IMG/VR virus record: IMGVR_UViG_2541047896_000002
Strand: one strand, 5' to 3'
Origin: a virus
Lineage: Monodnaviria; Loebvirae; Hofneiviricota; Faserviricetes; Tubulavirales; Inoviridae
DNA: 7,722 bases
Shown piece by piece: positions 6,127 through 7,722 of the stretch. Made by a program: the position numbers and the translations under genes. Position 1 is the first letter of the stretch, and every line of letters begins with the position of its first letter. The notes under the pieces were generated by a model. It saw only the letters and a list, made by a program, of their open reading frames with translations. It did no database searches and was not told where the DNA came from.

Positions 6127-7385
6127 AGCTGATAACAGGTTTACTTTTTTTACTGGTTCCGGGGCTGGTTATAGCGAAGGGCGTCAGTCTGGAGCTTAAC
6201 GCCGTTCCGCTGCCGCAGGCGCTGAACATGATTTATGTTCAGGTGTTCGACAAGCCTTTTATGCTTGACCCGGAGCTTGCCAAATCTGACAAGGTGGTGA
6301 CGTTCCGTATCACGCCGGATATCGATGAACGGGCATTCATTAAGCGCTATCTCGGCAACATGAACATTGCGATTTACAACAAACAGGGCATCGATTACGT
6401 GGCACCATTCACGCCTAAAGCGTATGTGGCGCCGCAGGAAACCTTTGTTTATCGGCCTCGCTTCCGTTCCGTGGCGTATTTGTCGGATATTCTGGCCGGG
6501 CAGTTTACGGGGCAGTTTAATAGTCAGCGTAATTCGTTACCGTCCGGGCAGATCTCGCCGGAAGCGGCTGTAGCAGGTACGGCATCGGACTTTATGAACC
6601 GTACCGGGGATGTGCTGGTTTATTATGGCCGGAAGTCAGAGATTAAGCGGTTGCAGACGCTGTTACCGCTGATTGATACCGCTTCTGAGGAAGTTATTGT
6701 CGCCGCTTACGTGTTTGAGGTTCAGACCAGCGAGCGTAACGGCTCAGGGCTGGCACTGGCGGCGAAGCTGCTTTCCGGCAAGCTGAACATTCAGATTGGC
6801 ACGTCCGGCGGTTTTGACAACTTTATCCGGGTGAATACCGGCTCTCTCGATGCGCTGTATGAGCTGTTCAGGACGGACAGCCGTTTTCATGTCGTCAGTT
6901 CCCCGCGGCTCAGGGTGAAGGATGGTGCGTCAGCCACGTTTTCAGTTGGTAATGAGGTTCCGGTGCTGGGTCAGGTGAGCTACGCCGACAACAGGCCGAT
7001 ACAGTCGATTGAATACCGTTCCAGCGGCGTTATCCTCGACGTGAAGCCGCAAATCCGGACTGACAACATTGACCTTGTGATTAAGCAGCAGCTTTCCAGC
7101 TTTGCGAAGACAGATACGGGCGTGAATAACAGCCCGACGCTGATTAAGCGTGAGGTTAATACGGAGGTCTCAGCGGCTGACGGGGATATTATTCTGCTGG
7201 GTGGCCTGGCTGAATCTAAGGTCACGAACGCCGATACCGGATTCAGTTTCCTGCCGAAAGGCTGGCTCTCCAGTTCGTCCGACGAGAAGAACAAGACGGA
7301 TATCCTCGTCGTGTTACAGGCGAAAAAAGTCAGGCGCGCCAGCGCCGCGCACGCACCGAGTTCCCACGAGGAGCGCGCGCGGTGA
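6123..7385 (+). CDS. pIV-like secretin (phage export channel)
   Basis: N-terminal signal peptide (MKLITGLLFLLVPGLVIA). The C-terminal region LLGGLAESKVTNADTGFSFLPKGWLSSSSDEKNKTDILVVLQAKKV resembles the end of M13 pIV (...GTPFLSKIPLIGLLFSSRSDSNEESTLYVLVKATIV, from memory). It is followed by an unusual GC-rich tail, RRASAAHAPSSHEERAR. Confidence 0.85.
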   Translation: MKLITGLLFLLVPGLVIAKGVSLELNAVPLPQALNMIYVQVFDKPFMLDPELAKSDKVVTFRITPDIDERAFIKRYLGNMNIAIYNKQGIDYVAPFTPKAYVAPQETFVYRPRFRSVAYLSDILAGQFTGQFNSQRNSLPSGQISPEAAVAGTASDFMNRTGDVLVYYGRKSEIKRLQTLLPLIDTASEEVIVAAYVFEVQTSERNGSGLALAAKLLSGKLNIQIGTSGGFDNFIRVNTGSLDALYELFRTDSRFHVVSSPRLRVKDGASATFSVGNEVPVLGQVSYADNRPIQSIEYRSSGVILDVKPQIRTDNIDLVIKQQLSSFAKTDTGVNNSPTLIKREVNTEVSAADGDIILLGGLAESKVTNADTGFSFLPKGWLSSSSDEKNKTDILVVLQAKKVRRASAAHAPSSHEERAR

Positions 7386-7722
7386 TGGTGGCGACGGACG
7401 CATACAGGCGGTGACGTGGCGGAATATCTGGTTTTTATGCCGTCAGGCATGGGAGGCGCTTCGCGCCGGAAGCCCCGCAGCGAAGCGAGGACTCAGAAAG
7501 CGTTATGGCGTCAGCCATAATATTCCCGTCACTGCAAAGCCTGTTTTTTGCGGCCGCAGGTCATTCAGGCATCGACATGGCCAGTTGATGAAATTGATGC
7601 CTTACAGCGTGTGTGACAGAATGGCGATCGCCGGTGACAGGCTTTCACATCAACCCGGGGTGCGGTTTGTTTCTTCCTGGTATCCGGCAACAAATTCTTT
7701 CCGAACGCGCTTATCTGCGCAC

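Follow-up and report, generated by a model that had tools for sequence, protein, structure and literature searches.

The complementary (minus) strand origin of the Ff phages (M13, f1 and fd) is a pair of hairpins that mimics an RNA-polymerase promoter. Single-strand initiation (ssi) elements of plasmids were reportedly first isolated by replacing the M13 minus origin, and functional interchangeability of the two is therefore plausible. In plasmids R1 and R100, a primase G site is said to lie about 400 bp downstream of oriR, where the leading strand is primed by primase alone; this site reportedly has two essential domains, with blocks common to plasmid G sites, and a dispensable middle, and its homology to phage G sites is said to be limited and located near the primer start. 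Here we describe region 7300-7722 of an inovirus sequence of 7,722 nt (IMG/VR record IMGVR_UViG_2541047896_000002), the whole of which is referred to as the window. Region 7300-7722 is native phage DNA, the non-coding stretch that separates gene IV from the attachment site in a G2P/Zot/secretin-type phage integrating at dif. It contains a conserved element at 7429-7549 which, judged from sequence comparison, is likely to be a DnaG-dependent complementary-strand origin of the primase G-site kind. Escherichia coli DnaG starts primer synthesis at the middle base of d(CTG) (PMC2978363), and single-strand integration of the CTXphi type has already been attributed to YpfPhi and CUS-1Phi (PMC4246890, PMC4266046).

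An earlier note on this DNA had offered two readings of the region, either a native intergenic region with packaging signal and origins or a recombination junction with foreign or host DNA. The first is essentially right, with the reservation that neither a plus-strand origin nor a proven packaging signal was found in 7300-7722. The check proposed there, whether relatives keep the block, also favours native DNA, since the secretin tail and the downstream block are 89-94% identical in other E. coli prophages.

A conserved element downstream of gene IV

The putative complementary-strand origin spans about 110-120 nt of the plus strand (7429-7549), and its delimitation rests on homologues, on synteny and on a covariance model built from the element family, with which the window scores 135.8 bits. 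Stem-loop 1 (ATGCC-GTCA-GGCAT, 7437-7450) enters with its 3' arm into block A, GCATGGGAGGCG (7447-7458); stem-loop 2 (GGCGC-TTC-GCGCC, 7455-7467) runs into block B, CGCCGGAAGCCCCGCAGCGAAGCGAGGAC (7464-7492); stem-loop 3 (TTATGGC-GTCA-GCCATAA, 7503-7520) precedes block C, CCCGTCACTGCAAAGCC (7525-7541), which carries an invariant CTG at 7532-7534 and was recognized from the alignment and from identity to phage G4. All of these lie on the plus strand. The two hairpins with GTCA loops constitute a direct repeat of 16 nt with a spacing of 68 nt.

The hairpins are maintained by compensatory changes. Stem-loop 1 has no mismatched pair (G:T allowed) in any of 35 family members, despite 16 stem/loop variants that include swaps from C:G to G:C. 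For stem-loop 2, which in the family reads GGCGY-NNN-RCGCC, all cells (100%) are paired and four sequences have U:A in place of C:G; stem-loop 3 is paired in 99.5% of cells and has two pairs with two-sided changes, in ten and six sequences. A longer helix preferred by the energy model (7457-7469 with 7475-7487) was ruled out for lack of support from covariation. Among 23 distinct aligned members the invariant blocks are GCATGGGAGGCG, CGCCGGA, CCGCAGCG, CGAGGAC and a CTG, the last of these situated 9-13 nt past stem-loop 3 in 33 of 34 members. The version carried by the related phage circle of strain A37, described below, has a long insertion in stem-loop 2 and no stem-loop 3, and thus resembles the arrangement in R100.

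Hairpins with a stem of at least 5 and a loop of 3-8 were counted and compared with 500 dinucleotide shuffles. Segment 7433-7545 holds six, against 0.67 in the shuffles, none of which reached six. The earlier description of the whole downstream part as palindrome-dense is thus accurate for 7433-7545 but not for 7546-7722, which has no hairpins and whose two palindromes (GCGGCCGC and GGCGATCGCC) are loopless. The positions first given for these structures are exact at 7437-7450, 7455-7467, 7503-7520 and, for GGCGATCGCC, 7623-7632, and that of GCGGCCGC, which lies at 7550-7557, was one base off. Folded as plus-strand single-stranded DNA (ssDNA), segment 7386-7722 gives a z of -2.1, with -2.35 for 7433-7545, +0.7 for 7549-7698 and -0.3 for 7322-7432.

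Matches of 95-125 nt to 7428-7549, at 76-88% identity, occur in 1564 plasmids, of which 924 are from Klebsiella and 385 from Escherichia; 1206 are typed as conjugative. No annotated feature is overlapped by the element among the plasmid matches listed. A genome-wide pattern scan also returned many chance matches in GC-rich bacteria, and these were removed by demanding block B. Inovirus contigs carry the element in a fixed setting: in 11 of 11 (ten from IMG/VR and one from Lelliottia) it lies directly 3' of gene IV, on the gene (virion) strand, and the secretins (pIV) of these contigs are as little as 50% identical to that of the window. Further copies were noticed elsewhere. In the IncX4 plasmid pHNSHP10, the element occupies 4001-4126, between hicB and taxA, with no annotated feature beneath it, and a plasmid of isolate AR436 has two copies, at 198-293 and 3001-3096, 2.8 kb apart and likewise free of annotation. 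Several copies per genome are present in Erwinia tracheiphila (three sequences) and in Candidatus Erwinia dacicola (three sequences); on these contigs no inovirus Rep, Zot or secretin genes are detectable nearby.

The sequence around the invariant CTG links the element to primase. The segment CACTGCAAAGCC (7530-7541) holds ACTGCAAAGCC, which is identical in 11 of 11 positions to phage G4 at the annotated primer start, where the G4 record reads 'RNA primer of replication 3970-3997 / origin of complementary strand synthesis 3998'. We estimate at about 2e-4 the probability that this specific 11-mer would be met by chance on either strand of 337 nt. On the whole G4 genome the best match of the covariance model is the annotated origin, although it is not significant (E 0.67). 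The same model finds a homologue in the F plasmid (NC_002483, 40,763-40,890, minus strand; 40.6 bits, E 1.6e-8), in an unannotated gap, and a match in R100 (90,380-90,523, minus strand; 13.5 bits, E 0.42 over 523 kb), which is also the best match in a targeted search of the 1 kb past repA (E 0.018). The R100 segment reads ATGCCGC-ATCA-GCGGCAT-GGAAGGCGG[33 nt]CCGCCGAAGCCC...CCCCAGCCCTGCCAGACC, with the blocks in the same order as in the window element.

Position on IncFII replicons supplies the strongest argument. A close homologue of the element is present in the IncFII(K) plasmid pMR0617ctx (83% identity) and in an Enterobacter IncFII plasmid (79%). In both it is found past repA, 779 nt from the stop codon and on the other strand, its CTG end turned towards the origin and thus oriented for synthesis away from oriR. 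The R100 match lies 711 nt downstream of repA in the same orientation as the IncFII(K) homologue, and homology of repA and the origin is colinear between the two replicons right up to the element. As far as sequence can settle the matter, we regard this positional evidence as decisive.

Several properties of a G site are thus found together in the element: a CTG at a set place, homology to the G4 primer start, the plasmid blocks and the R100 position (the sequence link to R100 being weak), location on the template strand, and three stable hairpins with compensatory changes, the persistence of which on ssDNA coated with single-strand-binding protein (SSB) is predicted. DnaG probably primes at this site, which probably serves the phage as its complementary-strand origin. 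After infection, the SSB-coated plus strand would leave the three short hairpins exposed, and the host DnaG primase would recognize the conserved blocks around them. Primer RNA would start opposite T7533, within the invariant 5'-CTG-3', and proceed towards lower coordinates, through stem-loop 3; extension of this primer by DNA polymerase III would then convert the viral strand into the replicative form.

An origin of the Ff type, primed by RNA polymerase, was considered for the same region and ruled out. There are no promoter-like sites in 7200-7722, the region does not align with the intergenic regions of M13 or If1, and 7386-7722 has no match in the phage collection, the distant search mode included. 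We lean, with less assurance than for the priming site itself, towards a broader proposal: the clade of dif-integrating enterobacterial inoviruses would have swapped an RNA-polymerase minus origin for a plasmid-type DnaG site, a module of about 110 nt common to more than 1500 conjugative or mobilizable plasmids (IncFII(K), IncX4 and others), which would also act as a crossover point for the exchange of attP-proximal segments.

Evidence against a primase site and competing explanations

A number of observations weigh against the assignment to primase. The ssDNA fold of the element beats shuffled sequences only modestly (z -2.35). The F homologue reads CCAGC where other members have CTG. Statistically, the connection with R100 is borderline (E 0.42 in the genome-wide and 0.018 in the targeted search), and that with G4, at E 0.67 and with the 11-mer, is even weaker; BLAST searches for copies of the element in F, R100 and R6K found none, and only the covariance model reached F and R100. 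The identity of R100 90,380-90,523 as the primase G site is our assumption. In IncX4 plasmids the element adjoins taxA, close to the expected place of oriT. Finally, the window has a second conserved hairpin (490-545), which shares 38 identical nt with the intergenic region of If1 and may itself be an origin signal.

The best of the alternatives, though in our view an unlikely one, is a primosome assembly site of the phiX174 type, on the hairpins of which PriA, DnaB, DnaC and DnaG would assemble. Multi-hairpin ssDNA elements of plasmids and phages can reportedly be of this PriA type, and the invariant GCGAAGCGAGG resembles the hexamer AAGCGG of n' sites. However, the element carries AAGCGA rather than AAGCGG, and the positional equivalence with R100, the invariant CTG and the 11-mer at the G4 primer start point to direct recognition by primase.

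Slightly less probable again is a packaging (morphogenetic) signal of the phage, which in Ff is an orientation-specific hairpin immediately past gene IV that suffices for encapsidation. Such a signal would be consistent with the place of the element behind gene IV and with its plus-strand orientation, which is kept strictly in every inovirus contig, and also with a GC-rich hairpin that, like that of M13, starts where gene IV ends. Against it, 7429-7549 is present in 1564 plasmids that are not packaged in filaments, and in IncFII plasmids it occupies a position related to replication. A packaging signal at the upstream hairpin (7339-7388) is possible, but the window version of this hairpin folds no better than shuffles (z -0.3).

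A role in RNA or transcription, as a terminator past gene IV or a small RNA, instead of DNA priming, is very unlikely. T-runs flank the element in many members (TTTTT ahead of stem-loop 1 and TGTTTTTT past block C) and terminator-like sites on the minus strand lie nearby. However, no plus-strand terminator was called, and an Rfam scan of the whole window matched no family, its sole sub-threshold match (34-85) being irrelevant. Conserved unpaired blocks and an invariant CTG would be needless for a terminator, and position and strand in IncFII plasmids fit the start of the leading strand, not the end of a gene. The idea of a leading-region (Frpo-like) promoter, as in F and R100, had arisen from weak 30-nt matches to R100 and was dropped, because the same match also occurs in the tra gene regions of F and R100. 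The junction with foreign DNA, the least probable of the alternatives, is taken up below with the structure of the phage unit.

The phage unit, its secretin tail and its attachment site

The window encodes, on the plus strand, a G2P-type replication protein (873-1988), a Zot-like pI (5092-6126) and the secretin pIV (6123-7385), as identified from the list of open reading frames (ORFs) and Pfam. The phage is filamentous and integrates at E. coli dif, and the window is a single circular unit of it, cut at the attachment site. Tandem prophages of E. coli strains G5 and NCTC9040 are 97% identical to the window over 1-7548. Another inovirus, found in tandem beside hipBA in strain SW071618, matches 7427-7722 and runs unbroken into window 1-100, and the join between 7722 and 1 is also contiguous in a related replicative form, the 7,439-bp circular 'plasmid unnamed4' of strain A37 (NZ_CP195780.1). 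The window is therefore one circular unit, in which 7722 adjoins 1. A segment of the A37 chromosome (NZ_CP195776.1, 2,408,802-2,409,258) gives match statistics equal to those of NZ_CP195780.1.

The unit is a mosaic of phages. It is of the G5 type up to 7548 and, from 7427 onwards, 98.7% identical to an If1-like dif phage, the overlap of the two being the conserved element; the phage-to-phage breakpoints thus fall near 7427 and 7549. One further relative, IMGVR_UViG_2663763285_000003, has 100% identity to the window at the protein level, with fragmented Zot and pIV matches, and the split matches suggest frameshifts or sequencing errors; in that contig part of a second, diverged phage unit comes after the window-like unit. 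The only match of the window to the phage collection is a segment of 64 nt (486-549, to the If1 intergenic region). It includes 38 nt identical to the 'major intergenic region' of If1 (U02303, 5046-5112) and lies between two minus-strand regulator ORFs, with GCGAAGCGG placed ahead of the hairpin GTTCGGG-GTTCTGTGACA-CCCGAAC. This segment may represent a plus origin, a packaging signal or a PriA site.

Gene IV (6123-7385, plus strand; stop TGA at 7383-7385) encodes a secretin of 420 aa, of which residues 250-400 are spanned by the Pfam Secretin domain. C-terminal alignment bears out the earlier remark that the protein continues past the usual end of pIV: it extends 15 residues beyond the ends of the pIV proteins of If1, M13 and the relatives L020 (an IMG/VR contig) and L014. 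The tail, ASAAHAPSSHEERAR, comprises residues 406-420 (nt 7338-7382), and the C-terminus ...KKVRRASAAHAPSSHEERAR is common to the window, G5 and A37. The pIV of L020, 76% identical, stops at KKVRR, and those of L014, If1 and M13 stop at about that point. At the DNA level L020 remains alignable through the tail stretch and has an in-frame TAA where the window stays open.

The tail and stop codon overlap a GC-rich imperfect hairpin (7339-7388, plus strand; arms 7339-7357 and 7370-7388; 79% GC). In L020 and L014, the sequence 3' of the gene IV stop folds at the same position into a strong hairpin outside the coding sequence. From these alignments, the best reading of the tail is translation running into a post-gene-IV hairpin that is non-coding in relatives, and not foreign DNA. 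The window hairpin folds at -25 kcal/mol, yet its z is only -0.3, as against -4.6 and -7.7 at the homologous place in L020 and L014, respectively; it has no sequence similarity to M13. Runs of A and of T border the L014 hairpin, as in a bidirectional terminator, and hairpin 7339-7388 is a candidate terminator or packaging signal. On the minus strand, 7333-7352 resembles an intrinsic terminator, a GC stem followed by CTGACTTTTTT, as a consensus match only (two such sites were found, with 0.6 expected). We also noticed that the post-gene-IV hairpins of L014 (4743-4759) and L020 (322-306) hold, on the minus strand of the locus, a second copy of the block B motif, CCGCAGC-NNN-GCGAGGA, with two mismatches, of which the window tail hairpin keeps only CACGAGGAGCGC.

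The abrupt change from AT-biased to GC-rich sequence that had been placed at about 7330 proved to be in part real. A local maximum does exist: the top 100-nt GC value of the entire window (0.71, sliding-window analysis) is reached at 7329-7333, 7333-7432 having 71% GC and the tail-coding segment 7333-7385 having 79%. The sequence is not AT-biased up to 7330, however, as gene IV (6123-7332) has 53% GC against 45% for the window and the climb starts at about 5900, and the step of +0.20 at 7333 ranks 64 among 7522 positions. Nor does the rise last, the values being 60% in 7435-7541 and 52.5% in 7542-7722. It is a local peak of 100-200 nt and no lasting departure from an AT-rich phage.

Between the priming element and attP lies a variable spacer (7550-7710), which contains the loopless palindromes GCGGCCGC and GGCGATCGCC and is replaced in the G5-type prophage by an unrelated version of 121 nt. 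The spacer was ruled out as a packaging signal or gene: 7549-7698 has no fold signal (z +0.7), and the minus-strand ORFs 7565-7693 (42 aa) and 6980-7450 have no match in Pfam.

The attachment site follows across the circular junction. Positions 7711-7722 (plus strand) hold TTATCTGCGCAC, an inverted sequence resembling the XerC arm, which abuts the XerC arm of attP; together with the XerC arm GGTGCGCATAA it makes a palindrome over the unit junction (7711-7722 and 1-12) that is kept in three lineages. A CTXphi-type attP extends over 2-95 (plus strand). Its first part, 2-34, reads GGTGCGCATAA-TGTTTGACTCG-TTATGTTGAAA, with the XerC arm at 2-12, a central region of 11 nt at 13-23 and the XerD arm at 24-34; the tip of a GC hairpin (36-68) and an inverted second site (69-95, CTTTAGCATAA-CGTCA-TTATGCGCATT) follow, as seen from the ssDNA fold and the junctions. 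The fold of 1-93 reaches -31.2 kcal/mol (z -7.1). The bulge sequence differs among lineages, while the arms and the TGT beside the XerC arm are kept. Integrated copies have the expected ends: the right end of the G5 array is a regenerated perfect dif, GGTGCGCATAATGTATATTATGTTAAAT, and at the left junction in SW071618 the order is host DNA, XerC arm, TGT, phage DNA. The features of a CTXphi-type Xer site (PMC4246890) are all present: two inverted dif-like sites folding in the plus strand, homology confined to the XerC side and regeneration of an intact dif at one end. Of attP only 7711-7722 falls inside 7300-7722. Right after the regenerated dif of G5, at 11,844-15,548 of that locus, stand two neighbouring site-specific integrase genes, which may belong to another integrated element.

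The only host junction is thus at dif (7722/1) and not at 7330. The proposal that foreign or host DNA was joined by recombination from about 7330 on, replacing the native C-terminus of pIV, could draw on the local GC maximum at 7333-7432, on a tail absent from other pIV proteins and on the switch from a G5-type match ending at 7548 to the 98.7% match with an If1-like dif phage from 7427, but it is rejected, as tandem prophages and a circular replicative form carry the block without interruption, other prophages keep both the tail and the DNA that follows it, L020 has the homologous non-coding hairpin at the same place, matches to 7300-7438 in E. coli genomes are found only in prophage or plasmid DNA annotated as secretin, and the mosaicism is between phages that share the conserved element.

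Significance and comparison with known systems

The odd-looking end of this phage is therefore ordinary, functional phage DNA, and the true host junction is placed at dif. The element provides a likely complementary-strand origin for the CUS-1/Ypf-like inoviruses of E. coli, Klebsiella and Lelliottia, for which none was found described in the searchable literature; a search for natural inoviruses with primase-type origins likewise found nothing relevant, and the sequence motifs of the element, looked for in published text, turned up in unrelated primer lists only. The kind of priming site is already known, and what is new is a probable plasmid-type primase site in natural filamentous phages. 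The same short element stands at the position where the leading strand starts in IncFII plasmids and occurs in many resistance plasmids, IncX4 included. The covariance model of the family could be used to annotate priming sites on plasmids and phages, and the element is a natural candidate for engineering phagemids independent of the Ff origin. If the proposed swap of origins is true, nature did what laboratory ssi-cloning assays do with M13, and a large family of ssDNA priming sites, found unannotated in public records, joins the replication of plasmids and filamentous phages.

Among described systems, the element is closest to the G sites of R1 and R100. It shares with them the order of blocks: first a hairpin with GCATGGRAGGCG at its end, next a GGCG...CGCC hairpin with GAAGCCC after it, and then CCC..C-CTG-CCAGRCC. 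In IncFII(K) plasmids a close homologue of the element has the position and strand of the R100 match, with the CTG end towards oriR. In contrast to the plasmid sites, the window element resides in a filamentous phage, past gene IV and on the packaged strand. R100 differs in turn by a 33-nt insertion in stem-loop 2 and another middle part, and direct similarity to it is weak (9.8-13.5 bits). The complementary-strand origin of G4 (Microviridae) is likewise a single-strand initiation site on the packaged plus strand. It shares ACTGCAAAGCC with the window and has a hairpin 5' of the CTG, three hairpins altogether and a similarity of the form CATGG..GGCG-loop-CGCC..AGGACT. The virus family differs, however, the overall similarity is not significant (E 0.67), and the distance from hairpin to CTG is 11-12 nt in the window and 3 nt in G4.

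The intergenic region of Ff (M13/f1/fd), in which the packaging signal precedes the minus origin and the plus origin comes last, resembles the locus in its place on the map, directly past gene IV, and in the succession of a GC-rich hairpin and a minus-strand initiation signal. Unlike in Ff, promoter-like sites and a plus origin are lacking from the window region, which does not resemble the intergenic regions of M13 or If1, and the Rep gene comes about 1.2 kb further on, beyond attP and regulator genes. The attachment site, finally, is like the attP(+) of CTXphi, YpfPhi and CUS-1Phi in having two inverted dif-like sites that fold into a hairpin, the other central region being of 5 nt (PMC4246890, PMC4266046). 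It also has the TGT homology beside the XerC arm, the regeneration of a perfect dif at the right end and the tandem prophages of the CTXphi type. The over-long central region measures 11 nt in the window and 12 bp in CTXphi (PMC4246890, PMC4266046), and the arms are about 34 nt apart in the window, in contrast to 90 bp in the CTXphi type.

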